From a virus (Duplodnaviria > Caudoviricetes), in IMG/VR virus record IMGVR_UViG_3300042549_007930, positions 1 through 56,837 of that record: a stretch of DNA of 56,837 nucleotides. The stretch is one strand, 5' to 3'. The translations under genes and the position numbers were made by a program. Of this stretch, positions 17,182-32,269 are shown piece after piece; within the stretch, counting starts at the first letter, position 1, and each line of letters starts with the position of its first letter. The notes below the pieces were generated by a model. It made no database searches and was not told where the DNA came from. It saw only the letters and a program-made list of their open reading frames with translations.

Positions 17182-17541
17182 ACTAAAGCACCAAATAGAG
17201 GAAGACCAACTGAAAATGATACTCCAATACTTCAGTACACTCAGAATTTTAAAGAACATACAGGTGAAACATTTACTTGGAATTGGGACAAAACTCGATT
17301 CCCAAATGGACCATTAAGTGTTGAAATTAAAGACCCACAATGGAGCACTTTTGACAGATTAGAAAATAAATTAGCAGCATTATTATCTCAATATGAAGTA
17401 AAAGGTAGTGAGCGTAAAAAACGAATTACCAAAACTGATAAATTAGAAATAGAAGCATTAGAAAGTGAAATAAATGAAATATGGTATGGTTTCTATCCTG
17501 AAGACAGACCTAAAGTAAGAAAAAACGCTAAACGTAAATAA
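17179..17541 (+). CDS. Hypothetical protein
   Basis: Directly follows a promoter/leader repeat. Confidence 0.7.
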   Translation: MTKAPNRGRPTENDTPILQYTQNFKEHTGETFTWNWDKTRFPNGPLSVEIKDPQWSTFDRLENKLAALLSQYEVKGSERKKRITKTDKLEIEALESEINEIWYGFYPEDRPKVRKNAKRK

Positions 17542-17862
17542 ATGAAGGCTAAACAACTTAAATTCAAAAATTTAGATGAACTAATGGAGTTCAATGAAGA
17601 TCAAGTTCGTGACATACACCTTCATACTTTTAAATTCTTAAGACAAGAATGGAATAAAAATAAAAAGTTTAGTGATGTAGATCTTTTCAATGTAGATTTT
17701 GAAGACGATGATGAATTTGAAAATATAATTTTAACTATTCATTCTAATGAATGGATTAAAGCTTTAGAATTAGGGTTAGAATATTTTGTAGAACAAGAAG
17801 AATACGAGACATGTGCTCACATTAGAAATTTATTAATTAAAATTAAAACTAAAAAGAAATGA
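17542..17862 (+). CDS. UvrB/UvrC-motif protein
   Basis: LEYFVEQEEYETCAHIRNLL. Confidence 0.6.
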   Translation: MKAKQLKFKNLDELMEFNEDQVRDIHLHTFKFLRQEWNKNKKFSDVDLFNVDFEDDDEFENIILTIHSNEWIKALELGLEYFVEQEEYETCAHIRNLLIKIKTKKK

Positions 17863-18065
17863 GTTATTTTCAAGCAACAGTAGAAATCCTTGACATGAAT
17901 GAAAAAGGTAAACAATCAAAAAACAGAGAGTTATATTTAGTAGATGCTGTTTCGGTAACAGACGCAGAAGTTAAAGTAACAAAAATGTTTGAAGACGAAG
18001 GTTCACAAGTGGATTTTCAAGTAAAAAGTGTTAGAGAAACAAAGATTTTACAAGTAATTGAATAA
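17859..18065 (+). CDS. DUF4494-like protein
   Basis: ELYLVDAVSVTDAE motif typical of Bacteroidota and their phages. Confidence 0.65.
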   Translation: MSYFQATVEILDMNEKGKQSKNRELYLVDAVSVTDAEVKVTKMFEDEGSQVDFQVKSVRETKILQVIE

Positions 18066-18115
18066 AAGCTTTTTGAAGCACACCCCATCCTTAGATACGT
18101 ATATACGCCACAAAC

Positions 18116-18325
18116 ATGAATTACCTTTATAAACATAATGATAAATTGTATTTGGTACTTAGAAACATGCCCGAACATAATTTTAAAAATAAGGATGGGT
18201 CTTTTAACATGGAGGTTTTAAAGGCATGGCGCGATCATTTAGGTGGCGACCATGTCTTAAAACAAAATGATAGATTTTTAATAGTAGAAACAATACAAGA
18301 AATAGAATATGAAACAAGTAATTAG
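18116..18325 (+). CDS. Hypothetical protein
   Basis: 69 aa ORF; TACGTATA upstream. Confidence 0.6.
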   Translation: MNYLYKHNDKLYLVLRNMPEHNFKNKDGSFNMEVLKAWRDHLGGDHVLKQNDRFLIVETIQEIEYETSN

Positions 18326-18560
18326 ATTTACAGCCACTTGGTGTGGTCCATGTAAAATGTATGCTCCAACATTTGAAAGAGTAGCCTCAGAAGTATCAGG
18401 AGTACAATTTAAAACAATTGATGTTGATTCAGGAGACCCATTAATAATGAAGTTAGGAATTAGAAACGTGCCAACAACAGTTATATTAGAAGGAGATAAA
18501 GTACTTCAAAAACAATCTGGGAATATGGGAGCGGAACAGTTGAAACAACTTATTGGATAA
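18309..18560 (+). CDS. Thioredoxin
   Basis: FTATWCGPCK, IDVD, VPT. Confidence 0.92.
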   Translation: MKQVIRFTATWCGPCKMYAPTFERVASEVSGVQFKTIDVDSGDPLIMKLGIRNVPTTVILEGDKVLQKQSGNMGAEQLKQLIG

Positions 18561-18562
18561 AA

Positions 18563-19588
18563 ATGATTAAACAACAATTTGAAAAATATAAAATAAGTCA
18601 GATGCAATTAGACCCCTTTGGGGTCTGCAATGCTAAATGTTGGTTTTGCCCTGTTAAGTATAAAGGTAATCCTAAAGAGGGTAAAGAGGTTATGTCTATA
18701 GAATTGTTGGAGAAAATCATTGTTAATTTACTTGAGGAACGAGGTAGAGAAGATGGTTTAGTAAGTAAGAGTTTTAATGGGTTTTATACCGCCCATTATA
18801 ATGAAATACTATTATACCCTCATTTTGAAGAGATGTTAAAGTTATGTAAAAAATATAGATTACATACTTTAGTATTAACAAATGGGGTTCCAATGACTCC
18901 TGAAAAAACTGATTTGATAAAACAATACCCTGAAGTAATAACTGGAGTATGTTTTAATACACCTGCATTTGAAGCAGATGTATGGAGTAAACGTAGTGGA
19001 ATTAATATTAAACAATTTGATAAATTAATTAATAATATTAAATACGCTACTGAAAACTTACCTGATTTAGTTAGGGGAGGAGCTTTATCAATTCAAGTAA
19101 ATGGAGTAAATGAAAATTCATTCAGTGATAGAGGGGGTTGGTTAGATAAAGGTTTAGAGTTTCCAACTGACATTGATTTAGATCAATATAAAGGAGAATT
19201 AATTACTCAAGCTAATTTAGCTAGAGAAATGTTTCCGGGAGTTCAAGTGTATGAAGTACCTTCATTAATTGATAGAGCAGGTTTATTAGATAATATTATT
19301 ACTAATAAAGAGGCTATTAAGAGAAATTTACAAGGGTACAATGAAAATAAAAAAGTAATTGGTTGTGGAAATGGTATAGAGGTAGGAGGAAGACCTATAG
19401 GGTGGATACATATTAACGCAGCGGGTGATGCTTTCTTATGTTGTAATGATTATGATTTTGATTTTAAATTTGGTAACTTCAAAACACAAGAATTGAGAGA
19501 TTTTTGGGGTACAGAAGAACATATCAATTTAGTACAAAAGTCTTATGATACAATATGTAGAAATTGTGCATCTGCAATATTTGAATAA
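18563..19588 (+). CDS. Radical SAM protein with SPASM/twitch domain
   Basis: CNAKCWFC, TNG, G..FLCCND, CRNC. Confidence 0.88.
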   Translation: MIKQQFEKYKISQMQLDPFGVCNAKCWFCPVKYKGNPKEGKEVMSIELLEKIIVNLLEERGREDGLVSKSFNGFYTAHYNEILLYPHFEEMLKLCKKYRLHTLVLTNGVPMTPEKTDLIKQYPEVITGVCFNTPAFEADVWSKRSGINIKQFDKLINNIKYATENLPDLVRGGALSIQVNGVNENSFSDRGGWLDKGLEFPTDIDLDQYKGELITQANLAREMFPGVQVYEVPSLIDRAGLLDNIITNKEAIKRNLQGYNENKKVIGCGNGIEVGGRPIGWIHINAAGDAFLCCNDYDFDFKFGNFKTQELRDFWGTEEHINLVQKSYDTICRNCASAIFE

Positions 19589-19590
19589 TT

Positions 19591-19845
19591 ATGAATAAAA
19601 TACAAGAAATTTTTACAGCATGGGCAATATCATTTGACCCAAACCAAGCTCAATCTGATTTAGCAAGTGAGAGAATTCAAATTTGTAATGAATGTGAATT
19701 TAAAGCTACAATACCTATTATACATTGTAGTTTATGTGGTTGTGCCTTAAGAGCTAAGATTTTTACACCTCTTAAAGGAACAGAAGAAACACCTACTTGC
19801 CCTAAACATAAATGGAAAGAAGTAGAGGAGAAATACCTACCGTAG
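19591..19845 (+). CDS. Small Cys-rich metal-binding protein
   Basis: RIQICNEC...CSLCGC...K...CP.HKW. Confidence 0.7.
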   Translation: MNKIQEIFTAWAISFDPNQAQSDLASERIQICNECEFKATIPIIHCSLCGCALRAKIFTPLKGTEETPTCPKHKWKEVEEKYLP

Positions 19846-19900
19846 GAAATGTTTGGAAAACCAAAACGCATTTCGTATATTAAAGCATAAATTTAAAAAT

Positions 19901-20125
19901 ATGAAAACAGTTATTAAAGTTTTAGCAATATTAATATTAGGGTTTGGGTTAGTACAATTAACTGACTTAGCACTCTATCTAATGAATAGACCTGATAGTT
20001 ACCTATTCAATATTGGGTTATTAATATTTGGAATATTGTTTGTAGCATTTGGCTATTTAGGATTGTATCTACTGAAGGTGTTAAAACCAGAGGATGAGGA
20101 AGAAAAAGAAGAAAATGAATTATAA
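19901..20125 (+). CDS. Two-TM membrane protein
   Basis: Start moved from 19853 to the ATG at 19901 behind the promoter repeat; two hydrophobic segments and an acidic tail. Confidence 0.7.
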   Translation: MKTVIKVLAILILGFGLVQLTDLALYLMNRPDSYLFNIGLLIFGILFVAFGYLGLYLLKVLKPEDEEEKEENEL

Positions 20126-20146
20126 ATCAAATTTAAACAACAAGTT

Positions 20147-20974
20147 ATGAACAGAATTTTAGTAGCATTAGGTTTAGTCCTAACAATTTTTGCAATCACA
20201 ATGTCATGTGAAAACATTGACTCAGGTAACATTGGTATCAAAGTAAACAAGTTTGGTACGGGAAGAGGGGTAAGTGGAGTGACAGAATGTACAGGTACAG
20301 TCTTTTACAACCCAATCACAACAAACATTTTTGAATTCCCAATTAACATTAGGCATAAGGAATATACAGAAGAAGGATCGTTTGTAGTAAATAGTAAGGA
20401 TGGATCAGAGTTTCATGTGTCACCGATTGTAAACTATAGAATTAATCCTGATAAAGCCACTCAAATCTTTGCCAAATATAGAAAAGACTTAGATGGTATT
20501 GAGAATGGGTTCTTGAAAACAGCTGTAACAGAAGCATTCAGAATTGTCACAAATAGTTATACTGCTGATCAATTAATTTCAAGTAGAGAATCTTTTGATA
20601 ATAAAGTAAAAGCTACATTAAGGAAACAACTTGAACCTGAAGGATTTGTATTAGATCAGTTTACAACTAATTTAGAATATCCAACATCGTTTAAGAACGC
20701 TATTAACGCTAAAAATAATGCAGTACAAAAAGCATTAATGGCTGAAAATAGGGTTAAACAAGCAGAAGCTGAAGCTAAAATTAAAGTAGCAACTGCTGAA
20801 GGAGACGCACAAGCGACACTTACAAGAGCAAAAGCTGAAGCTGAAGCAAATGCTTTGAAACAAAGAACATTAACACCTCTATTAATTCAACAACAATGGA
20901 TTGAGAAATGGAGAGGAAATGTACCAACAACAACATTAGGTTCAGGTACAAATGTGATGTATGGTTTAAAGTAA
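20147..20974 (+). CDS. SPFH/Band 7/prohibitin-family membrane protein
   Basis: N-terminal hydrophobic segment with Cys; AINAKNNA; AEAEA coiled coil; IEKW.G.VP. Confidence 0.88.
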   Translation: MNRILVALGLVLTIFAITMSCENIDSGNIGIKVNKFGTGRGVSGVTECTGTVFYNPITTNIFEFPINIRHKEYTEEGSFVVNSKDGSEFHVSPIVNYRINPDKATQIFAKYRKDLDGIENGFLKTAVTEAFRIVTNSYTADQLISSRESFDNKVKATLRKQLEPEGFVLDQFTTNLEYPTSFKNAINAKNNAVQKALMAENRVKQAEAEAKIKVATAEGDAQATLTRAKAEAEANALKQRTLTPLLIQQQWIEKWRGNVPTTTLGSGTNVMYGLK

Positions 20975-21052
20975 AATTATATAAAATATGTTTAGAGGCT
21001 TGGATTTCCAAGCCTCTTTTCGTATATTAAAATATAATTAAAATGATAAATT

Positions 21053-22168
21053 ATGATGTTACCAATTTTATTTAAACGTTCAAATAGTAAAGAACATATC
21101 AACCAATGGCAAATTGAGGTTGAAGGAAGTAAATTTAGAACCACAACTGGGTTTGTAGGTATGAAGATGTTTACAGGTGATTGGACTGAATGTACTCCTA
21201 AAAATGTAGGTAAAAAGAATTCAACAACAGCTGAAGAACAAGCTTTATTTGAAGCTAATGCCCTTCATACTAAACGTAAAGATTTAGGTTATTGGGAAGA
21301 TATAAATGATTGTGATAAGAAAGTATTCTTTCAACCTATGTTAGCCCAAGACTATGATAAGAGAAAAGACAAAATTAAATTCCCAATCTTATCTCAACCT
21401 AAATTAGATGGTATCAGATGTATTATTAAATCAGATGGTATGTGGACAAGAAATGGTAAAGAGATTATTTCTGCGCCTCACATATATGAATATTTAAAAC
21501 ATATCTTTGATAATCAACCCGACTTAGTATTGGACGGTGAATTATATACTTCAGATAGAGATGTTGATTTTAATACTATTATTTCATGTGTTAGAAAAAC
21601 AAAACCAACACAAGCTGATTTAGAAATGTCAGCTAAATATATTGAGTTTTGGGCTTATGATTTATATGATGGTGAAGATTTAACATATGAAGATAGAAGA
21701 AATCTATTAAAAGAGTTAGAAAGTAGATATAATGTTTATTATCCTTTATACAGAGTAGTTACAACTTATCAATTGCCTGATGAAAAACATATTATGGAAC
21801 AACTTCAACATTACATTGAACAAGGTTTTGAAGGCCAAATATTAAGAGATCCAAACACTCCTTATGAAAATAAAAGATCAAATGGTTTATTAAAACATAA
21901 AACATTTTTTGATGAGGAGTTTGATATCATTGGTTACGCTGAGGGTGTAGGTAAATTTTCAGGTAAATTAGCAACTTTAAAAGTAGATGTTAATGGGGTT
22001 CAAGTTGATTGTACTATAAATGGTACAATGGGTTATTTAGAAGAATTATTTGAAATTAAAGATAATTTAATAGGTAAAAAAGCAACTGTTAAATATTTTG
22101 AAAAAACAACTGATAATTCATTACGTTTTCCAAAAGTGATTCAAATAGATAGAAACAGTTATGAGTAG
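21053..22168 (+). CDS. ATP-dependent DNA ligase
   Basis: PMLA, QPKLDGIRC, LDGELY, EGQILR, YENKRS..LLKHK, SLRFP. Confidence 0.93.
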   Translation: MMLPILFKRSNSKEHINQWQIEVEGSKFRTTTGFVGMKMFTGDWTECTPKNVGKKNSTTAEEQALFEANALHTKRKDLGYWEDINDCDKKVFFQPMLAQDYDKRKDKIKFPILSQPKLDGIRCIIKSDGMWTRNGKEIISAPHIYEYLKHIFDNQPDLVLDGELYTSDRDVDFNTIISCVRKTKPTQADLEMSAKYIEFWAYDLYDGEDLTYEDRRNLLKELESRYNVYYPLYRVVTTYQLPDEKHIMEQLQHYIEQGFEGQILRDPNTPYENKRSNGLLKHKTFFDEEFDIIGYAEGVGKFSGKLATLKVDVNGVQVDCTINGTMGYLEELFEIKDNLIGKKATVKYFEKTTDNSLRFPKVIQIDRNSYE

Positions 22169-22367
22169 AAAACCTTATAAAAGATTTTATTGTGAAGATA
22201 CATCTCCTGTATTAAAATCAATAAGAAACGCTAAGAATCATGGTAAAATTAGGACAATAAATGATTTAACTTACGAGCAAATAGGAGATGATATGCTGTA
22301 TTGCTTTAAAACCTCTTGCGTTGTTAAACTTGGCTCTCTAGAATTGGATTCGTATATTAAGACATAA
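22161..22367 (+). CDS. Hypothetical protein
   Basis: 68 aa ORF overlapping the ligase stop. Confidence 0.5.
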   Translation: MSRKPYKRFYCEDTSPVLKSIRNAKNHGKIRTINDLTYEQIGDDMLYCFKTSCVVKLGSLELDSYIKT

Positions 22368-22383
22368 TTAAAATATAAAGATT

Positions 22384-22578
22384 ATGAGTAAAGAATTAAG
22401 TGAATTAAGTATAGATGAAATTAATAATAAATTAATTGAAAACTATAAAACTCAAGTTGAGATTTTAAAATCAATGGTGGCTGATAGAGATAAATTAATT
22501 TCTCTATATGAAAAACAATTATTAATTCAGGATAAACATATTGATGAAATTAATAAAATTATAAAATCAAATTTATAA
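22384..22578 (+). CDS. Coiled-coil hypothetical protein
   Basis: Follows a promoter/leader repeat. Confidence 0.65.
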   Translation: MSKELSELSIDEINNKLIENYKTQVEILKSMVADRDKLISLYEKQLLIQDKHIDEINKIIKSNL

Positions 22579-22582
22579 TAAG

Positions 22583-22861
22583 GTGGAGAAAACAGGTAAT
22601 CTTGAAAAACTAACTTATGACTTTAATACAGCCGCTAATCTAGAAATTTGGATGCCAAATCTAGATGGGTGGTATAGAGTCACAAGTAGAGAATTCAGAA
22701 GTTTTAATGGTAAGAGAAGAATTAATGGGGAAGAATATAAAGGTGTTGTATTCCATTATGGAACTAATAAAAGAGCTAACAAGTCATTAGTAGAGGCTAA
22801 TAAAATAGCGAGCCATAATTACAAAAGTGTTAGGAGACCCGGAGATCAATTAGTATATTAA
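22583..22861 (+). CDS. Hypothetical phage protein
   Basis: GTG start; WYRVTSREFRSFNGKRRI. Confidence 0.65.
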   Translation: MEKTGNLEKLTYDFNTAANLEIWMPNLDGWYRVTSREFRSFNGKRRINGEEYKGVVFHYGTNKRANKSLVEANKIASHNYKSVRRPGDQLVY

Positions 22862-22884
22862 ATTAAATAAAAAAATAAATATAA

Positions 22885-23088
22885 ATGGAGAAATTAGGAG
22901 TATTTTTTGCCGCTATTGGTATGATAATAGTAATAGCTGTGTTAATGGCTTGGCCTACACAATGGCTTTGGAATAATGCTTTAATAGGGGCTATTGATGG
23001 TTTAAATCCAATTGGGTTTTGGCAGGCGTTAGGTATTAATGTATTATGTGGTATTTTATTTAGAAACTCAACAACAAATTCAAAATAA
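22885..23088 (+). CDS. Small membrane protein
   Basis: Hydrophobic; WLWN and IGFWQALG motifs. Confidence 0.75.
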   Translation: MEKLGVFFAAIGMIIVIAVLMAWPTQWLWNNALIGAIDGLNPIGFWQALGINVLCGILFRNSTTNSK

Positions 23089-23264
23089 TGAGTTATTATC
23101 AAGTTATATTAAAATCAGGAAAGACACACCCGTCTCTTTATAAAACTATTCCTAATGCTATTAAAAATGTAGGGGTAGAGAATATAAAGGAGATTAAAGA
23201 AATTAGATCGGAATTAGTAGATGCTAAATACGAAGAACCAACAGGAACATTAAACATAGAATAA
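23088..23264 (+). CDS. Hypothetical protein (58 aa, not in ORF track)
   Basis: TAATG overlap with previous stop; MSYYQVILKSGK... Confidence 0.6.
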   Translation: MSYYQVILKSGKTHPSLYKTIPNAIKNVGVENIKEIKEIRSELVDAKYEEPTGTLNIE

Positions 23265-23265
23265 T

Positions 23266-23406
23266 ATGAGCAAAAACAGCGCTAAAACAAACTACGAACA
23301 ATTGATTCAGTGGTTACCAACATTAGGACAACCTAAAGTGAAAAAAGAACAACAGTCAACTAAATTTAGTAAAGCTGACCATTACAAGAGTAAAGGGGTT
23401 AAATAA
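23266..23406 (+). CDS. Hypothetical basic protein (46 aa, not in ORF track)
   Basis: MSKNSAKTNYEQLIQWL... Confidence 0.55.
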   Translation: MSKNSAKTNYEQLIQWLPTLGQPKVKKEQQSTKFSKADHYKSKGVK

Positions 23407-23456
23407 GTTTTGCTTTCCAAATATCTTTTCATATATTTAGGTATAAATTAAATGAA

Positions 23457-23630
23457 ATGAAAACTGTACAATTTACCTTACAAGAAAGATGGGCTGCTTC
23501 AAAGCATATGGTTCAAAAATCTAAAAAAACTTACACTAGAAAAGATAAACATAAAAACAAGGACCTTAAAGGTCCTTCTTTTATTGTAATGTTTGGCTCT
23601 CCGGGGTATACTTCGTATATTAAAATATAA
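23457..23630 (+). CDS. ArfA-like small basic protein with internal terminator (57 aa, not in ORF track)
   Basis: Has its own promoter at ~23408; KSKKTYTRKDKHK motif; hairpin and U-tract lie before the stop codon. Confidence 0.6.
   Translation: MKTVQFTLQERWAASKHMVQKSKKTYTRKDKHKNKDLKGPSFIVMFGSPGYTSYIKI
23559..23585 (+). terminator. Intrinsic terminator inside ORF 23457-23630
   Basis: AAGGACCT-TAA-AGGTCCTT followed by CTTTTATT. Confidence 0.65.
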
Positions 23631-23647
23631 TTAAAAAGATAAAGGTT

Positions 23648-23809
23648 ATGAAAGAAGCGCATTTACAATTAGCTAAACAGTTAATAGAATTAAAACATTT
23701 AAGAGAGGATGTTAAAGTAGCTTATATTGATTTTGAAGATGGATCAGGAAAAAGTTTTATATTTAGTACTACAGTTAATCCTAATCATAAAATTCATATT
23801 AGATTATAA
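23648..23809 (+). CDS. Hypothetical early protein (53 aa, not in ORF track)
   Basis: ATG at the end of a repeat; IDFEDGSGKSF. Confidence 0.7.
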   Translation: MKEAHLQLAKQLIELKHLREDVKVAYIDFEDGSGKSFIFSTTVNPNHKIHIRL

Positions 23810-23878
23810 AAGTAAAGTTTGGCTCCCCTAAATTAATTTCGTATATTAAATCATATTAATAATTAAAAATAAAATGTT

Positions 23879-24616
23879 ATGACAAATCAAGAAACACAAT
23901 TAGAATTAGATTTCGGAATGTTAACAGTTGCTCAACAAGAGCGTGTTGATTCATTTATTCAAAACCAAAAAAATATTATTCAAAATAATATTAAAAATAG
24001 TAATGCTATTGAAACATTATTAAATGAAGGTGGTTTTATTAAAGGTGTTGATTATGAAAACACTATTAAAACTAAAGTTGTAACAGAAGAAAAAGAATTT
24101 TATTGTGATGGTAATTTTAAAACTGATATTACTTATGAAACAGTAGAAGGTAGTATTTCAATTTTATATAAAAAATATGATCCTAGAGAAAATAAAATTG
24201 TAACTCAAAGAGGTTATATTTCAAAAAATTCTGATAAACTTGAATGTAGTTGTATTACTTCACAATATAGAGCTTACAAACCGAAATCATTATATGAAAA
24301 ACTTGTAGAAAGTAATAGTAAAGCTCAAAATGAGTTTGATAGTGATAATCGTGAAAGATTAATTGTAAAATATACTGTTAACAAATACAAAAATTTATTT
24401 CCAAAAGCTGAAGTTACAGTAGGTAGAGATTACTATAAAAATTATAGAAGTAATTATATTGAATTTCCAATTGTAATGGTTAAATTTGAAAGTGGTTCAT
24501 ACATTAGCTTCAGAATGGGTTATATAATTGATGAAGAAGTGGTTTATAAAAAACATGATGCAGTTGCTTCTCAATTAAGTGCTATTGAATTATTAAATAT
24601 TTTTAATCAACAATAA
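23879..24616 (+). CDS. Hypothetical early protein
   Basis: 245 aa ORF behind a repeat. Confidence 0.75.
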   Translation: MTNQETQLELDFGMLTVAQQERVDSFIQNQKNIIQNNIKNSNAIETLLNEGGFIKGVDYENTIKTKVVTEEKEFYCDGNFKTDITYETVEGSISILYKKYDPRENKIVTQRGYISKNSDKLECSCITSQYRAYKPKSLYEKLVESNSKAQNEFDSDNRERLIVKYTVNKYKNLFPKAEVTVGRDYYKNYRSNYIEFPIVMVKFESGSYISFRMGYIIDEEVVYKKHDAVASQLSAIELLNIFNQQ

Positions 24617-24677
24617 AGTTTGGCTCCCCTAAATTGATTTCGTATATTAAAGTATAATAATAAAAAATATAAATGTT

Positions 24678-25478
24678 ATGACACAGTTAAAAAAATTATC
24701 AAGAGAGGAGTTAAAATCATTAGCACCTCAAGTATTTAACCATCAAGTTAGTTCTAAGTTAACTGACAAGTATGTTCATATTCCAACTGATACTATAGTT
24801 GAAGATATGGAAAAGTTAGGTTGGTTTCCCTACCAAGTGAAAACAGTTAAGGCTAGAAAATCATCAGGTGCAATGGGTAAACACTTAATTCAGTTTTTTA
24901 ATCCTGAAATTGTTATTAATAATGAAGCAGGTGAAGCTGATTTGTTTCCAAATTTATTATTAATTAATTCACATGACGGTTCTACTTCAGTAAGATTTGA
25001 AATGGGAGTATTCAGATTAGTATGTGAAAATGGTTTAGTAATTAAATCAAAAGATTTTGGAGGTTTCAAAATGAGACACATGGGTTATAATTTTGAAGAT
25101 TTAAGAACCCATATTAGCTCTTTAGTTAAAACATTACCTGATGTAGTTGATAATTTGAATAAATTCTCTCAGGTAATTATGACACCTGAACAACAAAATG
25201 AATTTGCAAATAAGGCAATTGAAGCTAGGTTTAATGAAGAAAAATCATTACCTCAAAGTGAAATTGACTATTTGTTAACACCTGAACGTAAAGAAGATGA
25301 AGGTGACAATTTATGGGTTGTACTAAATCGTGTACAAGAAAAATTAACTCAAGGAGGTTTTGGTTATTTAAACGCTAAGGGTAAATTAAGAAAAACAAGA
25401 GCTGTTAAAAACTTCACCATGGACACTGAAATGAATATGAAGTTGTGGGAAATTGCTGAAGAGTATTTAGTTAACTAA
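24678..25478 (+). CDS. DUF932/DUF945-family protein
   Basis: LLINSHDGS, GVFRLVCENGL, LWVVLNRVQE, N..LW. Confidence 0.85.
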   Translation: MTQLKKLSREELKSLAPQVFNHQVSSKLTDKYVHIPTDTIVEDMEKLGWFPYQVKTVKARKSSGAMGKHLIQFFNPEIVINNEAGEADLFPNLLLINSHDGSTSVRFEMGVFRLVCENGLVIKSKDFGGFKMRHMGYNFEDLRTHISSLVKTLPDVVDNLNKFSQVIMTPEQQNEFANKAIEARFNEEKSLPQSEIDYLLTPERKEDEGDNLWVVLNRVQEKLTQGGFGYLNAKGKLRKTRAVKNFTMDTEMNMKLWEIAEEYLVN

Positions 25479-25539
25479 AATTAAGGGGAGCTTGGCTCCC
25501 CTAATATAAAATCGTATATTAAATTAAATAAATAAAATT

Positions 25540-25728
25540 ATGACATTAACACCAATTCAAAAATTAAGAGAAGATATTAGAAGTTATGACTCTTCTATAT
25601 ACTTGTATGTTTTAGCTTTATTAGTTGAAGCAGAAGGTCAGGAAAAAGCATTCTTGGAAAAAGTTTATAACGAACCTAAAACAACTGAGTTTGAAGACTA
25701 TTATAAACAGTTTGGAAAACCTAAATAG
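25540..25728 (+). CDS. Hypothetical early protein
   Basis: Behind a repeat. Confidence 0.65.
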   Translation: MTLTPIQKLREDIRSYDSSIYLYVLALLVEAEGQEKAFLEKVYNEPKTTEFEDYYKQFGKPK

Positions 25729-25771
25729 GATTCGTATATTAAATCATATTAATAATTAAAAATAGAAAGTT

Positions 25772-25960
25772 ATGACATTACAAGTAATTAATACCAAAAA
25801 GGAAAAGTACAATCAAATTAGAACAACTAAAGAAAATTTATTTTCTGATTTAAAATTTCAAGGTTGGAATTTAAAAGATTGTAAAATAAGTGAATTAAAA
25901 GAAGGTTTAGTTCATACATTGTACAGAAGTGCAGATGGTAAAAACACTAGTACAAGATAA
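25772..25960 (+). CDS. Hypothetical early protein
   Basis: Behind a repeat. Confidence 0.65.
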   Translation: MTLQVINTKKEKYNQIRTTKENLFSDLKFQGWNLKDCKISELKEGLVHTLYRSADGKNTSTR

Positions 25961-25968
25961 AAACAAAA

Positions 25969-26098
25969 AGTCAGGTGGCGGAATTGGTAGACGCAAATGC
26001 CACTCGGAGAGTTATATAAAAGTATAAATCTCCTTGCTAGTGGTAGGGTTTCCTAAAGAGTAAAACATCCCATACAGGTTCAAATCCTGTCTTGACTT
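25969..26098 (+). ncRNA. tRNA-like RNA (Leu-type D arm, canonical T arm, anticodon arm replaced by a long hairpin)
   Basis: Acceptor AGTCAGG/CTTGACT; D arm GCG-GAATTGGTAGA-CGC; T arm ACAGG-TTCAAAT-CCTGT; ~79 nt between the D and T arms. Confidence 0.8.
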
Positions 26099-26106
26099 CT
26101 AATAAA

Positions 26107-26137
26107 TGCCTCATAACCATTTATTATTTTTAATTAT
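26107..26137 (+). ncRNA. Putative antisense element, copy 1 (complementary to cassette leader and AUG)
   Basis: TGCCTCATAACCATTTATTATTTTTAATTAT; reverse complement ATAATTAAAAATAATAAATGGTTATG. Confidence 0.55.
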
Positions 26138-26145
26138 CGAAGAAG

Positions 26146-26171
26146 AGCCTAACAGAAATGTTAGGCTTTTT
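26146..26171 (+). terminator. Intrinsic terminator
   Basis: AGCCTAACA-GAAA-TGTTAGGCT-TTTT. Confidence 0.85.
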
Positions 26172-26215
26172 GGGTTTAACTTCGTATATTAGGGTATAAT
26201 TAAAAATATAAAGTT

Positions 26216-26491
26216 ATGACAAAAGAGAAAGTAGGTTACAGTAGAGAAGCAATGATTAAGTTTCTAAAAATTGAAGGTGTTTATGTAATTGGAACAACTG
26301 AAGAATTTTCAGGTCAAAAAGGTGGAATTTGGGTTGGTGGTGAAGAAATGGATGGGTTATTTGAATACTATAATAATAGTTCTAAATTTACATTTGGAGT
26401 AGAGAAAAAATTAAACGAAGCTGTTAATAAAAGAGGGTGGTGGTTTAGTTGGAATGATCCGGGTACAATGATGGTGTGGCCAATTAATTAA
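26216..26491 (+). CDS. Hypothetical early protein
   Basis: Behind a repeat; GW..SWNDPGT. Confidence 0.75.
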   Translation: MTKEKVGYSREAMIKFLKIEGVYVIGTTEEFSGQKGGIWVGGEEMDGLFEYYNNSSKFTFGVEKKLNEAVNKRGWWFSWNDPGTMMVWPIN

Positions 26492-26549
26492 AATTTGGCT
26501 CCCCTAAATTGAATTCGTATATTAAAGTATAATTAAAAATAAAAATGTT

Positions 26550-26747
26550 ATGATAAATCCAAAAGTACAAGAAGTTATTGACACTTTAAGAGAAATTGAA
26601 GTGGATGGTGAAACAATGCAATACATTCTAGATAAAGTAGGAATGTCAGATCAAATATTAAGACAATTAATATTTTTAGCCCCTAAAGATCAATTAGAAG
26701 ATCTTATGGATGAAGTAGTAGCTTACCAAAAAATAAGAGGTTATTAA
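26550..26747 (+). CDS. Hypothetical early protein
   Basis: Behind a repeat. Confidence 0.7.
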   Translation: MINPKVQEVIDTLREIEVDGETMQYILDKVGMSDQILRQLIFLAPKDQLEDLMDEVVAYQKIRGY

Positions 26748-26809
26748 CCAAGGATTGGCTATTTAAAATATATTTCGTATATTAAAGTATAATTAAAAAG
26801 ATAAAAGTT

Positions 26810-27565
26810 ATGAAAAACATTGAAACATTAAATCAGGAAATTGTAAAGTTAGAAGAACAAAAAACTAATTTCTTAAATTTAGAACAAGATTTAAAAGATG
26901 CAAGATCTAATATCTATGTTAGAGAACAACAAGCATTAAGTGATTCTTTATTAATATTTTTTGAGGGTTTTAATCCTGATGCGTATATTGAAGTATCAAG
27001 AGACTCTATTTACTTTAAAACTGATCACCCTGATTACACTTACCGAAAAGAATTATTTAGTATTTATTTAAGAGAAAGATACGCAATTGAGGGTAAAAAA
27101 TATAGTGGGGCTGATTTATCTTATTACACCACTTCTACTAAAGGAGATGATGTTTGGGAGTTAAAAAGATTAAGAATGTTAGGAGATGTAGCTGACATTT
27201 TAATTAAAAGTCAACATGCAATAGTTGATGTAGCCAATAATACTGTAGACAAATTCAAAGAAGAATTTAATGAAGTTTATGGTAAAATGGGTGTTGTTGG
27301 AAATTCTATTAGAGACTTAAATAACCAAATTAGAGAAATCCAAAAACAAATTAAAAGAATTGAATTATTTGGAGAAGGTATTCAATTTGAAAAATCAAGA
27401 TGTATTACTTTGAAACATAATTATGAACCAAGAGTTGTATCTTTAAAATTAATTGAAGTTTCTAAATCAGGTAAAAAAGCAACTGCTGTATTTGAGTGGG
27501 AGAAAGGAAGAGAATCAAGAGAAGAAGGTGTAAATGTTGAAAAAATCATTTACCAAGTTATATAA
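26810..27565 (+). CDS. Hypothetical coiled-coil early protein
   Basis: 251 aa ORF behind a repeat. Confidence 0.75.
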   Translation: MKNIETLNQEIVKLEEQKTNFLNLEQDLKDARSNIYVREQQALSDSLLIFFEGFNPDAYIEVSRDSIYFKTDHPDYTYRKELFSIYLRERYAIEGKKYSGADLSYYTTSTKGDDVWELKRLRMLGDVADILIKSQHAIVDVANNTVDKFKEEFNEVYGKMGVVGNSIRDLNNQIREIQKQIKRIELFGEGIQFEKSRCITLKHNYEPRVVSLKLIEVSKSGKKATAVFEWEKGRESREEGVNVEKIIYQVI

Positions 27566-27566
27566 G

Positions 27567-27597
27567 TGCCTCATAACCACTTATTATTTTTAATTAT
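27567..27597 (+). ncRNA. Putative antisense element, copy 2
   Basis: 30/31 identical to 26107-26137; followed by hairpin GCCCCTT-ATT-AAGGGGC-TTT (27609-27628). Confidence 0.55.
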
Positions 27598-27681
27598 ACT
27601 TTGTTAAGGCCCCTTATTAAGGGGCTTTGGCTTTCTAAATTATAATTCGTATATTAGGGTATAATTAAAAAATAAAATGTT

Positions 27682-27918
27682 ATGACAAGTTTTAAATTGC
27701 AAGATGAAGCAAATGGGTCTTTTAAAATATTTGATTTAAGACAAGCTATAGGTAGAGAATTTAGTGATAATCACTCTCCAACTTTAAGGAGTAAATTATT
27801 AGAAGTAAGTGATTGTGGGAATGTTTGTACTGTAATTAGTATAGAAGCCTATAATAAACAAGGGGGCAAAGTAAGTAAACAACCTTCTTATTTAACTTGG
27901 AATGCCTTATTTTATTAA
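27682..27918 (+). CDS. Hypothetical early protein
   Basis: Behind a repeat. Confidence 0.7.
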   Translation: MTSFKLQDEANGSFKIFDLRQAIGREFSDNHSPTLRSKLLEVSDCGNVCTVISIEAYNKQGGKVSKQPSYLTWNALFY

Positions 27919-27975
27919 AATTTGGCTTTTATAAGTCAGCTTCGTATATTAGGGTATAATTAAAAATTAAATGTT

Positions 27976-28101
27976 ATGAAAAAAATAGTATTGTTAGGAG
28001 TTATTTATTGGGAAGTAGAAATTGGAGGGGTAACTCATATGTCATTCAACCCTCAAGAATTAGTTGTTAAAATGGCCTCAATGGGTTTAAGTTTAAATTA
28101 A
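27976..28101 (+). CDS. Hypothetical early protein (41 aa, not in ORF track)
   Basis: ATG at the end of a repeat. Confidence 0.6.
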   Translation: MKKIVLLGVIYWEVEIGGVTHMSFNPQELVVKMASMGLSLN

Positions 28102-28113
28102 AAATATAAAGTT

Positions 28114-28332
28114 ATGAGTTTACATTCAGTTTATATATGTGAAGATTTTGAAGTTGGTAATGGTATTTTAACTATTTGGGATGCCAAAGAAGTAGCTAAG
28201 GTAAAAGATATAGATGGTTTTAATAGGATTAGTGAAATTCTAATTTCTGAAAATGGAGTATTACCTAATGGAATTATATGTCCTAATTTATTTCATAATT
28301 CTGAATTTTTTGATATTATACTTTTTGAATAA
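28114..28332 (+). CDS. Hypothetical early protein
   Basis: Preceded by the leader half of the repeat only. Confidence 0.65.
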   Translation: MSLHSVYICEDFEVGNGILTIWDAKEVAKVKDIDGFNRISEILISENGVLPNGIICPNLFHNSEFFDIILFE

Positions 28333-28389
28333 TATTTGGCTTTTATAAGTTGACTTCGTATATTAGGGTATAATTAAAAATATAAAGTT

Positions 28390-28692
28390 ATGATAAAGAA
28401 AGAAAGATTAAGATTAAATACAGTTCATGTATTTGAAATGGTAAAAGCAAATTTTGAAGTAAGTACTGATTTTTGTGATGATGAAGGTCATGGTTATTTT
28501 ACTTTTGGGGTAATGAAAGATGGAGTAGAATACTTATTTGATTTAAGTAGAAGAGATTTTAGTGTTATTACCCATAAAATAAGAGGTGAAAAAGGTTATG
28601 AAATTGGAGCTGATTTAGAAGCTGAATTAGACAGATTTATTTTCTTAGAATTAGAAAATTCAAATGCCTTTATTGATAATATGGTTAAATAA
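28390..28692 (+). CDS. Hypothetical early protein
   Basis: Behind a repeat. Confidence 0.7.
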   Translation: MIKKERLRLNTVHVFEMVKANFEVSTDFCDDEGHGYFTFGVMKDGVEYLFDLSRRDFSVITHKIRGEKGYEIGADLEAELDRFIFLELENSNAFIDNMVK

Positions 28693-28753
28693 TATAGTTT
28701 GGCTCCTTAAAGGAGCCTTCGTATATTAAGGTATAATTAAAAATAAAAATGTT

Positions 28754-28981
28754 ATGAAAGTTACAGATGAAAAAGCAAGAGTAAAAGCTCTAAAAAATAA
28801 AATTAAAGATTTAACTGGGGTTAGAAGATTATATAAACCTTCTAAAGTTACTATTAAAGGAGAACCATTTCTTAGGTTTTATAATTCAGTAGATGGAATA
28901 GTTTGGCTTGATAGATTTTATGTAAATGAATATGATAAAGTTTTCACAGTAAAAGATGGAGAATTAGTTTTATTAGGGTAA
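28754..28981 (+). CDS. Hypothetical early protein
   Basis: Behind a repeat. Confidence 0.7.
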   Translation: MKVTDEKARVKALKNKIKDLTGVRRLYKPSKVTIKGEPFLRFYNSVDGIVWLDRFYVNEYDKVFTVKDGELVLLG

Positions 28982-29038
28982 TTTGGCTTTATAATAATAA
29001 ATTCGTATATTAAAGTATAATTAAAAATATAAGATGCT

Positions 29039-29398
29039 ATGGCAACAAGATCAAGAATCGGAATCGAAAATGAAAATGGTACAATTAGTTCAATTTATTG
29101 TCATTGGGATGGTTACCCAGATGGTGTAGGGGCAACTTTAGAAGAACATTACTCCAATAGACAAAAATTAAGAATGTTAATTAATTTAGGTGACATTAGT
29201 ATTTTAGGAGAACATGTAGCAACAATGGATGAACACTCTTTTGATAATAGAAAAGAAGGTGTTACAGTAGCTTATCATAGAGATAGAGGTGAAGAAAAAC
29301 GAGAAGCAAGAGTAGACAAATCATTAGAAACATTCTCAAACTATGAACAATATGGTTATGTTTACACTAAGGATGAAAAATGGGTAATGTTTGAATAA
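29039..29398 (+). CDS. Conserved phage protein (MATRS..IYCHWDGYP type)
   Basis: MATRSRIG, SIYCHWDGYP, AYHRDRGE. Confidence 0.75.
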   Translation: MATRSRIGIENENGTISSIYCHWDGYPDGVGATLEEHYSNRQKLRMLINLGDISILGEHVATMDEHSFDNRKEGVTVAYHRDRGEEKREARVDKSLETFSNYEQYGYVYTKDEKWVMFE

Positions 29399-29404
29399 TA
29401 AAAA

Positions 29405-29418
29405 GGGGCTTCGGCCCC
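29405..29418 (+). terminator. cUUCGg tetraloop hairpin
   Basis: GGGGC-TTCG-GCCCC just after the stop of 29039-29398. Confidence 0.6.
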
Positions 29419-29479
29419 ATATTATTTGGCTCCTATATATATATTTCGTATATTTAATTATAATTTAAAAATAAATGTT

Positions 29480-29761
29480 ATGAGAAAAGGTACAGTTACA
29501 GGTGAAATTAAAAGTATTTTAAATGAATTAAATGTAAAGTATAATGGATGTTATTCAGATACTTATAGGTTTGTAGAAGGAGGCAGATGGAATAATAGAA
29601 GGGTAGGGGTAAAATTTATAGGGGTATTCTTGACACCCGAACAAACAGAATTAGTAAAAATTAAAATGGAAAATAAAGGTTTTAAATTTGATTTTATTAG
29701 GGAAAATAGAGGTAAAAGTTATTATAATACTAATGGTACTAGATTTTGTTTTAAATATTAA
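29480..29761 (+). CDS. Hypothetical early protein
   Basis: Start moved from the TTG at 29426 to the ATG at the end of the repeat. Confidence 0.7.
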   Translation: MRKGTVTGEIKSILNELNVKYNGCYSDTYRFVEGGRWNNRRVGVKFIGVFLTPEQTELVKIKMENKGFKFDFIRENRGKSYYNTNGTRFCFKY

Positions 29762-29821
29762 TTAGGTTTGGCCCCTTAAAGGGGCCTTCGTATATTATAG
29801 TATAATTAAAAATATAGAGTT

Positions 29822-29995
29822 ATGACACAAGAAGAAATGAATACCGAAAATGCTTTAGTATTAGAAAAGTATGAAGTGATTAAAAAATTAGATAATTACT
29901 TACACAACGCAGCTTTTGATAGAATTACCCTAACAAGTGATATGTTAAAGGAGTTAAAAGGTATGATTGATGAAATGTTATTATCCGATTTTTAA
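29822..29995 (+). CDS. Hypothetical early protein (57 aa, not in ORF track)
   Basis: ATG at the end of a repeat. Confidence 0.65.
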   Translation: MTQEEMNTENALVLEKYEVIKKLDNYLHNAAFDRITLTSDMLKELKGMIDEMLLSDF

Positions 29996-30055
29996 TATTT
30001 GGCCTTTAAAAATATTATTCGTATATTAAAGTATAATAATTAAAAATAAAATGTT

Positions 30056-30277
30056 ATGAAAGTAAAAGATTTAATTAAGTTTTTGAGTGAACAAGATCAA
30101 AATTTAGAAGTAGTTATTAAATATATTGATCACACAGATTGGAATTATGAATTGCCTTTAAGAGCTCAAGATGTTTATGTGGACGAAGTATTTGAAGTGG
30201 ATGAAGCTAATTTGGAAGAAGGTCAATCTATTGAATCAGGAGATGAGTGTTTAGTAATTGAATTAAGTTTTGAATAA
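30056..30277 (+). CDS. Hypothetical acidic early protein
   Basis: MKVKDLI..L....QNLEV; behind a repeat. Confidence 0.72.
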   Translation: MKVKDLIKFLSEQDQNLEVVIKYIDHTDWNYELPLRAQDVYVDEVFEVDEANLEEGQSIESGDECLVIELSFE

Positions 30278-30283
30278 CATATT

Positions 30284-30388
30284 ATGAAAGAGAAATTATA
30301 TATTATTGAGGGATTTGAAATATGGGCGAATAATGAAGCCGGGGCTATTGAAAAATATAGATTATGGTGTTTACCATGTTGGAATTAA
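30284..30388 (+). CDS. Hypothetical peptide (34 aa)
   Basis: MKEKLYIIEGFEIWA...; fills the gap up to the next repeat. Confidence 0.5.
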   Translation: MKEKLYIIEGFEIWANNEAGAIEKYRLWCLPCWN

Positions 30389-30448
30389 TATTTGGCTTTT
30401 AAGTTTATATTTCGTATATTATAGTATAATAATTAAAAATAATATGTT

Positions 30449-30625
30449 ATGGAAAGTAGATTTGGTATTGAATTAGAGGTATTAGAGAGAGCATTACAAA
30501 ATATGATCAGTGAAGGTTATATGGGTAAAGATGATACAATTGAAGATTTAGAAGATTTAGCTTATACATGTTGTGAAGGGTTAGCTTGGTACGCCAAATC
30601 TAAAATATATGATTGGGCAAATTAA
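30449..30625 (+). CDS. Hypothetical early protein (58 aa, not in ORF track)
   Basis: ATG at the end of a repeat. Confidence 0.65.
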   Translation: MESRFGIELEVLERALQNMISEGYMGKDDTIEDLEDLAYTCCEGLAWYAKSKIYDWAN

Positions 30626-30684
30626 GGTTTGGCTTTTAAGATTATTATTCGTATATTAAGGTATAATTAAAAAGATAAATTGTT

Positions 30685-30852
30685 ATGGAAAATCAAGTAA
30701 ACGAATTAGAGTTATTGTTAATAAGGTTAGAAAACCTTGAATTGCAAATGGTTGAATTAGGAATAATAGAAGATGGAGATGAAAGAAGTGAAGTAATTGG
30801 TACAATAAAAGAATCAATATACGATGAAATAAGAGAAATAAGCAACGAATAA
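30685..30852 (+). CDS. Hypothetical acidic early protein (55 aa, not in ORF track)
   Basis: ATG at the end of a repeat; MENQVNELELLL... Confidence 0.65.
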   Translation: MENQVNELELLLIRLENLELQMVELGIIEDGDERSEVIGTIKESIYDEIREISNE

Positions 30853-31375
30853 AATTCAGTGTATGAAACCAATAATATTCTATCATACGGGGAAAGATAT
30901 ATGGGTAAAAGTAGATGAAATACTCACCGGGGAAACGATCATTTCCTCACCCGTTTCACCCCTCACATAATGTGACAAATCGGAATTAATATACCCTAAC
31001 AAATAATGGGATATGGATATTGGGATATAGGGATAGTATAGTATGTGGAAAATAGATTATATGGGATGTGGAAATAACAAAGGCGGGTACGTGACTTCAT
31101 TGAGGTGGGAGGCCAAGCCTTACTCGAATAGAGGAGTATATACTTTACCCTAAATAATGTTTTAAAACGCTGATTATACCCTGAAAAATATATGTTAAAA
31201 TGTTTGGCTTAGTTAAAAAGGTTTTATAAATTAAATTAAAAAAGGGTTTTAAACGCTGCCATGTTGTGAACCTAAAGTAGACGCGGCCCCACTCCCCCGG
31301 GGCCCCTACTTAAATTTTGTTTGGCTATTGGAAAATTGCTTCGTATATTATAGCATAATTAAAAAATAAAACGTT

Positions 31376-31663
31376 ATGACAAAGCAAGAATTTTTATCGG
31401 GTAAGTGTTTTACAATTGGGGCTCCGACTTATAAGGGTGCTAACACCTATAGCTATTATAAAAGTGATAGGAATGAGGGTTGTATAATGAGACAATCAAG
31501 ATCATCATTAGACAATAGAATAGTATTAAATGATTATGAGTGTAACGCTCCAACAGTGGGGTCAAAATCGTTTACTGGGTTTACTTACGTGTTGAAAAAG
31601 AAAGTAGTGGTTAAATATCGGTTTGAGGACCTAATACCGTTTGAGGAAACTGTAGGGGAGTAA
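31376..31663 (+). CDS. Hypothetical early protein
   Basis: Behind a repeat. Confidence 0.7.
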   Translation: MTKQEFLSGKCFTIGAPTYKGANTYSYYKSDRNEGCIMRQSRSSLDNRIVLNDYECNAPTVGSKSFTGFTYVLKKKVVVKYRFEDLIPFEETVGE

Positions 31664-31697
31664 AACCCCTGCATAGTTATAGAGAAAATCTATAGCA

Positions 31698-31934
31698 ATG
31701 AACATAACTAAACAACTAAACGGGTTAAACGCCCGTCTAAACGAATTACTCGAGGATCTAGACCGAGTACTGGATTATACCGATAATAACGAATTGTATA
31801 ACGAGATAGATAATAATGTCAAATCTCAGCTGGAAAACGCGCAAACGCACCTAGATATCGCTATTGACGATATAAATGACGGTATGTATGAAAATCCGCC
31901 CGCGGACGAAGAAGATTTAGAAGAATGGGATTAA
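31698..31934 (+). CDS. Acidic helical hypothetical protein
   Basis: 78 aa ORF with unusually CpG-rich codons. Confidence 0.6.
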   Translation: MNITKQLNGLNARLNELLEDLDRVLDYTDNNELYNEIDNNVKSQLENAQTHLDIAIDDINDGMYENPPADEEDLEEWD

Positions 31935-32269
31935 AAAATGATTTTGCATCCTTACAGTTCGGACCCGTTCGGTGCTGGTTTATAAACGTATAGCCACGCG
32001 TCGTTGCTGTCCATCGACGGATCCGCGGGATCACGGGACAAGATTATGGTGATAAGAGATCGAAAACACTCTTTACCCAACCCCCTTGTATATACAAATA
32101 TATACGAGTTTCAAATAACCCCTTTGATATAAAATTCATAAAGGTTAAAAAAAGAGATCTTAAAAAGATTTTACCAAATAAAAAAGTATATACAAAATAA
32201 ATGGGGAGCGGTTTGGCTCCCCAACTTCTGTTTCGTATATTGCTACATAATAATAAAAACAAATAGGTT

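Follow-up and report, generated by a model that had tools for sequence, protein, structure and literature searches.

A conserved + strand hairpin module complementary to the shared start regions of an early cassette array in uncultured phages: a candidate antisense RNA

The 3'ETS-leuZ RNA and small RNAs derived from 3' untranslated regions (3'UTRs) of enterobacteria act as Hfq-dependent sponges or as regulators of host genes. In phages P1 and P7, the c4 antisense RNA, associated with Hartmann et al. in 1995, is reportedly excised from a longer transcript by a tRNA-processing enzyme and is said to cover a ribosome-binding region with its exposed loops. To our knowledge, hardly any RNA regulators have been described in phages of Bacteroidota, a group of hosts without Shine-Dalgarno-led initiation. 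Here, we analyzed a stretch of viral DNA (56,837 bases, 28% G+C; in the following, the window) that is the whole IMG/VR record IMGVR_UViG_3300042549_007930. It carries two copies of an element that, as judged from folding and from comparison with relatives, is a conserved + strand RNA module of a hairpin, a U-rich tail, and an intrinsic terminator at the 3' end of an early transcription unit. Hairpin loop and tail are complementary to the leaders of an array of about 25 early gene cassettes.

Every large open reading frame (ORF) of the window lies on the + strand. The record is probably a fragment of a larger genome (relatives measure 90 to 173 kb). The nearest cultured phages, Flavobacterium phage vB_FspM_immuto (160 kb) and the elemo podoviruses, match parts of the region only, at 68 to 77% identity, and neither megablast of 24000-30000 nor tblastn of an ORF for 499 amino acids (aa) returned a close cultured relative. 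The host, assigned from these distant cultured relatives, is probably Flavobacterium.

A 31-nucleotide (nt) sequence is present exactly twice in the window, both times on the + strand, at 26107-26137 (copy 1) and 27567-27597 (copy 2). The copies agree in 30 of 31 positions, with a single T/C difference, and none of 100 dinucleotide shuffles yielded two matches to the 31-mer. Both are intergenic and on the coding strand, copy 1 directly 3' of a tRNA-like gene and copy 2 directly 3' of an ORF for 251 aa (26810-27565). An initial annotation of the sequence had described the repeat in just this way, as intergenic, on the transcribed strand, and in front of terminators, and it held in each detail that was compared; the hairpin that surrounds the 31-mer adds to that description. 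The parts of the two copies and the neighboring gene are as follows.

25969-26098, + strand: tRNA-like gene with a 66-nt insert at the anticodon position (Rfam tRNA, 33.6 bits; gathering score 29)
26100-26126, + strand: copy 1 hairpin, with 5' arm 26100-26108, loop CCTCATAAC 26109-26117, and 3' arm 26118-26126 (RNAfold, covariation)
26127-26141, + strand: copy 1 unpaired U/A-rich tail TTTTTAATTATCGAA, antisense to the leader 5' end ATAATTAAAAA
26142-26171, + strand: copy 1 intrinsic terminator hairpin, core AGCCTAACA/TGTTAGGCT, with U run (RNAfold)
27562-27584, + strand: copy 2 hairpin, with ATAAGTG 27562-27568, loop CCTCATAAC 27569-27577, and CACTTAT 27578-27584
27585-27604, + strand: copy 2 unpaired tail TATTTTTAATTATACTTTGT, antisense to the leader AAAGTATAATTAAAAATA (inverted repeats I3, I8)
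27605-27629, + strand: copy 2 intrinsic terminator hairpin GGCCCCTT/AAGGGGCT, then TTTGG (RNAfold, consensus scan)

RNAfold predicts the same architecture for both copies: a hairpin with a 9-nt loop, 15 to 20 free U/A-rich bases, and a GC hairpin of 13 or 11 base pairs (bp) with a U run. The minimum free energy is -21.3 kcal/mol for copy 1 (26096-26172; z -5.5, with 0 of 200 shuffles as good) and -19.5 kcal/mol for copy 2 (z -2.2). The stem of 7 to 9 bp (TAATAAATG-CCTCATAAC-CATTTATTA in copy 1, ATAAGTG-CCTCATAAC-CACTTAT in copy 2) displays a loop, CCUCAUAAC, that is antisense to GUUAUGA at start codons. The full 9-nt loop CCTCATAAC is the antisense of GTTATGAGG, while 3' arm and tail together are the antisense of the remaining leader. 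The T/C difference between the copies is compensated by an A/G difference in the 5' arm, just outside the 31-mer. RNAfold places a strong GC hairpin and U run after both copies, of which the consensus terminator scan lists copy 2's only; the TTTGG behind that terminator doubles as the -33/-35 element of the next promoter. Searching Rfam at gathering score returned nothing for 25800-27800 except tRNA (the neighboring gene), and tRNA only for 12 related loci. The hairpin is not built as a tRNA anticodon arm: its loop of 9 nt leaves a Y on one side and a C on the other unpaired, and the hairpin is located beyond the tRNA-like gene and can also follow ORFs.

The proposed targets share a common build.

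17145-32242, + strand: array of about 25 early cassettes, recognized by promoter cores and start contexts
Each cassette: terminator hairpin or TTTGG(C), promoter core TTCGTATATTA, leader (G)TATAATTAAAAAT..(A/T)GTTATGA, short ORF

With up to one mismatch, the core TTCGTATATTA has 27 matches in the window, against 3.8 +/- 1.7 expected; 25 of them lie on the + strand within 17145-32242, and the other two are distant, on the - strand at 9181 and 12319. TTTGG(C) stands about 17 nt upstream of every array core. A sigma-70-type scan renders the array promoters as TTGGCT-17 nt-TATATT, and the expected transcription start is therefore near GTATAATT. GTTATG precedes the start in 19 of 25 array ORFs and in 4 of 61 other ORFs. 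The array start context has G at -3, with an additional AUG 5 bases upstream in 9 of the 25 leaders. In Flavobacterium johnsoniae, A at -3 is favored and AUG is avoided near starts, according to excerpts of PMC6847099, so that the array context is not simply a host-type initiation signal.

Two further observations concern the build of the array. The same 9 of 25 leaders (e.g., 26542-26550) finish with ATGTTATGA, which creates a two-codon mini-ORF, ATG TTA TGA, in out-of-frame overlap with the real start codon; this is unusual for a host group that the excerpted text of PMC6847099 reports to avoid AUG near starts. Moreover, the TTTGG(C) -35/-33 element is frequently found inside or directly after the preceding terminator hairpin, giving a PeSL-like composite of promoter and terminator. 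The array as a whole is PeSL-like in that 25 promoter repeats, often overlapping a GC hairpin, stand between small variable genes.

The complementarity of the element to the array start regions is specific. Read in reverse complement, the element corresponds to the leader from roughly the expected transcription start up to and including ATGA, with the -7/-10 box outside the homology. The longest exact word shared by element and leader is 19 nt for copy 2 with its flank (the leader before 26550), in agreement with the initial annotation, and 16 nt for copy 1; an inverted-repeat search between elements and leaders returned I3 (22 nt, 95%), I8 (16 nt, 100%), and I11 (17 nt, 94%). Against the 25 leaders, the mean duplex energy is -14.4 kcal/mol for copy 1 and -12.8 kcal/mol for copy 2, compared to -5.9 +/- 1.0 and -5.6 +/- 1.1 kcal/mol for shuffled elements, the best of 200 shuffles reaching -10.7 and -9.8 kcal/mol. 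The 61 non-array ORFs gave means of -7.3 and -6.4 kcal/mol, significantly weaker than the 25 array genes (Mann-Whitney, P = 2e-10 and 3e-9). After subtraction of the cost of opening the hairpin, the net cofold gain was -10.9 kcal/mol for the array and -4.4 kcal/mol for the other genes, and a gain of -5 kcal/mol or better was found for 23 to 24 of 25 array mRNAs and for 19 to 26 of 61 others. The longest predicted pairing would span up to about 30 bp, the best case being the leader at 23612. By both yardsticks, shuffles and non-array genes, the exposed seed exceeds chance, and its complementarity is kept in relatives, where it tracks the leader at the level of classes only. Thus, the earlier proposal that the element is complementary to the translation-initiation regions of the array genes is borne out, and the refuting outcome named with it, duplex energies no better than those of shuffled controls, did not occur.

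A leader-like stretch, AAATTAAAAATATAAAGTTATGA, was also seen at 28086-28121, before the ORF 28114-28332 and without a promoter core. The start region of this ORF has a predicted element pairing of -16.8 kcal/mol, the strongest among non-array genes.

We searched for relatives of the module by pattern scans and accepted as a true copy any match on the array strand with hairpin and terminator. Copies were found in 30 IMG/VR and 7 metagenome contigs, so that the module is present in at least 37 uncultured phage contigs having the promoter core TTCGTATATT. One scan returned 68 stretches, most of which are genuine gene-strand leaders of other phages that carry ATAATTAAAAA-N9-GTTATGA after TTCGTATATTTAGGT. 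This identifies the element as the inverted copy of a leader that a large group of phages has in common. When only the 3' end of the tRNA-like gene and TCATAAC were fixed, the full build of hairpin, tail, and terminator was found in 23 of 30 stretches and was incomplete in 7. Among searches that left the loop free, combining the tRNA-like end with TTTCTTTT returned 45 distinct matches; most of them are due to chance, four lie in array-bearing loci, and one is a true element. The tail 17-mer alone as a query returned AT-rich noise. Identical 27-mers occur in different genomic contexts despite diverged flanks.

Aligning the 21 distinct hairpins from the 37 contigs and the window (7-bp helix; the rows are related) gave strong support for the stem. 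Stem cells are paired in 86.4% of cases, compared to 59.2% in shuffles (0 of 500 as high), the inner four pairs in 84 of 84 cells, and both-side changes are present at 7 of 7 stem pairs. The covariation score is 0.72 versus 0.215 for shuffled alignments (0 of 500), with slid partners at 0.03 to 0.20. A downstream hairpin of -12 kcal/mol or better accompanies every listed variant, so structure and terminator are conserved together. The strand of the folded molecule is indicated by the non-Watson-Crick cells, which read as 13 G.U and 3 A.C on the + strand and the reverse on the - strand, with kinship making this fewer than 16 independent events. This asymmetry favors a folded + strand RNA over both a DNA site and a minus-strand RNA. 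Across array-bearing loci (704 kb in total), the sequence YYTCATAAC lies in a hairpin of at least 4 bp followed by a downstream hairpin in 35 of 45 occurrences on the array strand and in 1 of 220 on the other strand, where the sequence is the complement of real start sites.

The initial annotation had asked whether element and leader covary in related phages; they do so between classes, and fail to do so within class B. Class A phages have leaders ATAATTAAAAAT.. and tails ..TTATTATTTTTAATTAT, and class B phages have leaders GTATAAAAAGAAAAG.. and tails TTTTCTTTT(TTA). When the tails alone were scored across phages, the duplex energies formed a block-diagonal matrix. With leader sets of class A, class A tails reached -5.1 to -11.2 kcal/mol and class B tails -0.1 to -4.3; with leader sets of class B, class A tails reached mostly -2.6 to -8 and class B tails -2.2 to -8.2. 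Two class A tails (L111 and L124b) score equally well on class B and class A leaders. Elements of classes B and C are better than their own shuffles (0 to 3 of 200 as good). In one contig (L124), two elements at 984 and 6008 carry unlike tails, CTTTTCC and TTTATCTTTTTTAATTAT, which may match two leader types of the same phage.

In most of the contigs found, the element follows the tRNA-like gene, though two of the searches required that gene. It follows plain ORFs in copy 2 of the window, in L001, L003 (copy 2), L021, L023, and L067; in L023 it stands directly after the homolog of a 62-aa ORF of the window, with no tRNA-like gene between. The tRNA-like gene itself looks like a tRNA-shaped scaffold with a hypervariable insert, as far as its sequence tells. 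Acceptor, D arm, and T arm are constant, whereas the interior is unrelated between the window and L003 (11158-11255), with flanks of about 95% identity. ARAGORN calls no tRNA at 25969-26098, and in relatives it calls Ser, Ala, Ile, Lys, Leu, Pro, an undetermined anticodon ('tRNA-???'), or none; Rfam scores are 31 to 43 bits, compared to 60 to 69 for two of three ordinary tRNAs in the relative L103. Its 3' end, CAGGTTCRAWTCCTGNYCTGACT, is very common in viral contigs (at least 120 stretches, IMG/VR loci L152-L230), with up to seven copies in 3.4 kb of a single contig (e.g., L164, 285-3380), among the matches listed mostly in phages without a TTCGTATATT array. Sampled irrespective of the element, 1 of 108 such 3' ends is followed by it.

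We propose that the module is an antisense RNA, taken from a 3'UTR or from the 3' trailer of the tRNA-like gene, that would act on the translation start regions of the early cassettes, a reading to which we give slightly less than even credence. The discrete RNA, its release by processing, its pairing in vivo, and the ensuing repression are steps that we infer. The freely covarying stem would serve to display, in the 9-nt loop YYUCAUAAC, the antisense of the start context GUUAUGA. The module would either stay as the 3' end of its parent transcript or be cut off, copy 1 through tRNA 3' processing behind the tRNA-like gene and copy 2 through 3'UTR processing. In either form, the RNA would bind about 25 cassette mRNAs in trans, across their 5' UTRs and start codons. 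First contact would be made at a U-turn-type loop, from which the duplex would grow along the 3' arm and then the free tail until it reached the mRNA 5' end; as a result, 30S binding would be blocked, an RNase III duplex formed, or both. YUNR loops speed antisense pairing, and the U-turn presents the bases that follow, as stated in excerpts of PMC6562991; here the loop reads Y-U-N-R (CUCA or UUCA) and then CAUAAC. Seven of its letters equal the anticodon loop of a genuine tRNA-Met (TTGGG-CTCATAA-CCCAA at 93640) in a complete 173-kb relative (G005), and the loop would meet AUG much like the initiator anticodon. Because the RNA would come from the same early promoters, it would provide delayed negative feedback on the early cassettes. 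Co-infecting relatives with the same leader could be hit in this manner as well. Less probable, and offered tentatively, is the full picture of a phage family of the Flavobacterium type with a dedicated anti-leader RNA that would combine a Met-anticodon-like U-turn loop for seizing the GUUAUGA start sites, a tail reading the 5' UTR, and maturation by tRNA enzymes of the host from a hypervariable scaffold, and that would gate the whole early regulon; since the leader is common to many related phages, such an RNA could also silence co-infecting competitors.

Several results weigh against the antisense proposal. Every pattern used to find elements required TCATAAC, so the invariance of the loop arises by construction and is not evidence. 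In the window, the first two loop bases (CC) suit few of the actual codons after ATGA. Within class B, own leaders are not the best partners (own ranks 1 to 18 of 20), and since tail and leader track each other between two or three classes only, few independent events are involved. L021 and L067 have no tail; complementarity there is limited to the hairpin and some 14 nt surrounding the start codon. The initial annotation's "twin" elements do not generalize, as the complete 173-kb relative carries exactly one element, within its early array and with 25 ordinary tRNA genes elsewhere. Cultured immuto has no element on the gene strand, and its leaders nevertheless contain GTTATGA, which is therefore not maintained by the element. 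The elemo genomes yielded one candidate pattern match. Across relatives there is about one element per 100 promoter cores; this low number and the absence from immuto speak against a "master switch" and mark the module, by its distribution, as accessory, low-copy, and dispensable. One or two RNA genes facing 25 to 60 target mRNAs is also an unfavorable ratio.

The RNA material consists of Logan contigs of metatranscriptomes, in which 24 runs contain small parts of the window without strand, level, or true ends. In four of these runs, the 62-aa ORF, the tRNA-like gene, and the 251-aa ORF are each covered in part by contigs from relatives; coverage is patchy, and uncovered parts are uninformative. 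A contig of X4 (record 19) extends from the ORF across a variant tRNA-like gene as far as 26110, where Illumina adapter follows. A contig of X1 (record 7) ends at 27568, which is two bases off the corresponding position of copy 2. Contigs from two studies thus end at nearly equivalent sites, at the 5' edge of the loop, which in contigs of this kind is at most a faint hint of an RNA end there.

The same complementarity could act in cis, the anti-leader pairing with the 5' leader of its own transcript, thereby silencing or stabilizing that unit, or with the next leader on read-through transcripts, as the initial annotation had also suggested. Both units that end in a copy of the element in the window open with a canonical leader (promoters at 25731 and 26774), duplexes with the own leader still reach -15.1 and -14.4 kcal/mol, and intramolecular pairing is entropically favored. 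However, in the window the own leader takes places 14 and 11 among 25, and it ranks 6th of 12, 8th of 12, 9th of 19, 10th of 24, 11th of 13, and 7th of 9 in six relatives, while the next leader, separated from the element by a strong terminator, ranks 12th and 16th of 25, which gives the read-through proposal no special support. These middling ranks show no tuning to a cis partner, and we consider a cis structure fairly unlikely. The element might instead be a by-product of cassette shuffling, an inverted promoter-leader piece captured beside a terminator and now a hairpin that aids 3' stability or termination, its complementarity being historical. The module is sporadic and low-copy, and PeSL-type promoter/terminator cassettes recombine, according to excerpts of PMC2839356 and PMC4122927. 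At 1775-1800 of one contig (L120), inverted homology continues past the hairpin through the promoter -7 box (AATATACGAT on the array strand), as expected of an inverted promoter-leader and, to judge from these letters, a clue to the origin of the module by such an inversion. A possible remnant is seen in immuto (L074, MW353175.1, 4709-4760), where TTTTTAATTAT, a cgaagaa spacer, and a terminator come after the homolog of the 251-aa ORF, with no hairpin or anti-start-codon loop. Such a history leaves unexplained the identical 27-mers across contexts with diverged flanks, the compensatory stem changes in 21 variants, and the match of the tail to the local leader class; a plain 3' stabilizer, moreover, needs neither an anti-start-codon loop nor an unpaired anti-leader. 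We regard this account as quite unlikely.

It is very unlikely, in our view, that the hairpin mimics the anticodon arm of tRNA-Met and is bound by a protein or the ribosome (a Met-tRNA-binding or -modifying enzyme, an anticodon nuclease, the 30S P site) with no mRNA pairing at all. The loop core CUCAUAA or UUCAUAA does share its letters with the tRNA-Met anticodon loop of the 173-kb relative, and the element often comes immediately after a tRNA-like gene. But a mimic should have a 7-nt loop closed by a base pair, whereas the loop here has 9 nt with Y and C unpaired; the stem is AU-rich and variable, the anti-leader tail and its tracking of leader class would go unexplained, and the element follows just the one tRNA-like 3' end in 108. 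Least probable by far is that the mirrored sequence is the leader of a reverse gene or the beginning of a minus-strand antisense transcript. The mirrored sequence does contain an ATG in leader context, L120 has its inverted -7 box, and a sigma-70-type scan gives one 10-of-12 minus-strand match at copy 2 (27620-27593); such matches are at chance level, however (18 found versus 15.4 +/- 4.2). As the initial annotation had noted, the minus strand has no phage-type core TTCGTATATT in the vicinity of the copies, and the ORFs from the mirrored ATG have 25 and 19 codons. From one relative to another, these ORFs change frame with respect to the conserved tRNA-like end, and the G.U pairs fit the + strand only. 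On sequence grounds, an inverted cassette was rejected as a candidate: the window has no minus-strand core there and no conserved ORF, and the inverted -7 box is confined to L120.

Further genes of the early region with recognizable families, from Pfam and PHROG scans, are listed below together with a large ORF; the five small neighboring ORFs scanned (62 to 251 aa) matched no Pfam or PHROG family.

18563-19588: radical SAM and SPASM protein
20147-20974: SPFH/Band 7 protein
21053-22168: ATP-dependent DNA ligase
24678-25478: DUF932 protein
43794-49568: 1924-aa ORF

If the antisense proposal is correct, dozens of separately transcribed early genes would be controlled through a single shared leader and a single antisense RNA, in what would be the RNA equivalent of the T4 proteins RegA and RegB, and a 7-nt loop plus tail would offer a simple experimental off-handle for phage early genes. 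Should this mechanism prove incorrect, the hairpin still stands as a new RNA motif supported by covariation, without an Rfam family and present in at least 37 uncultured phage contigs. Within our literature searches on related topics, we found no description of an antisense RNA against the shared leader of an early array, nor of this hairpin.

Compared to known systems, the proposed RNA is like c4 in being a phage-encoded antisense RNA with loops over a start region, processing being only proposed here. Unlike c4, which targets one operon (icd-ant) on its own transcript, it would target the leader of about 25 separate transcripts, and it sits at a 3' end with its own terminator. It resembles 3'ETS-leuZ in its position between a tRNA(-like) gene or ORF and an intrinsic terminator and in its proposed release by processing without an own promoter, but here the host is probably Flavobacterium and the RNA would be directed at early leaders of the phage itself. 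YUNR U-turn loops are also found in hok/Sok and in RNAII/RNAIII of pIP501, as described in excerpts of PMC6562991; the loop described here has the motif as CUCA or UUCA, followed by CAUAAC, the bases that would pair. Its size is 9 nt, its partner is an unstructured start region and not a loop, and its U-turn is putative. In build, the array is like the T4-type PeSLs (excerpts of PMC2839356 and PMC4122927), with small ORFans, a repeated early promoter beside a stem-loop, and a plastic region. PeSLs, as far as these excerpts go, are direct repeats that serve recombination at the DNA level and as promoter and terminator, whereas the element is an inverted leader copy that would act as an RNA hairpin, with one or two copies per genome. 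Finally, T4 RegA and RegB, as presented in excerpts of PMC3014915, recognize a class of early phage mRNAs via a short motif shared by their start regions. The early mRNAs of the phage described here would be recognized by the same principle, with an RNA in place of the protein.

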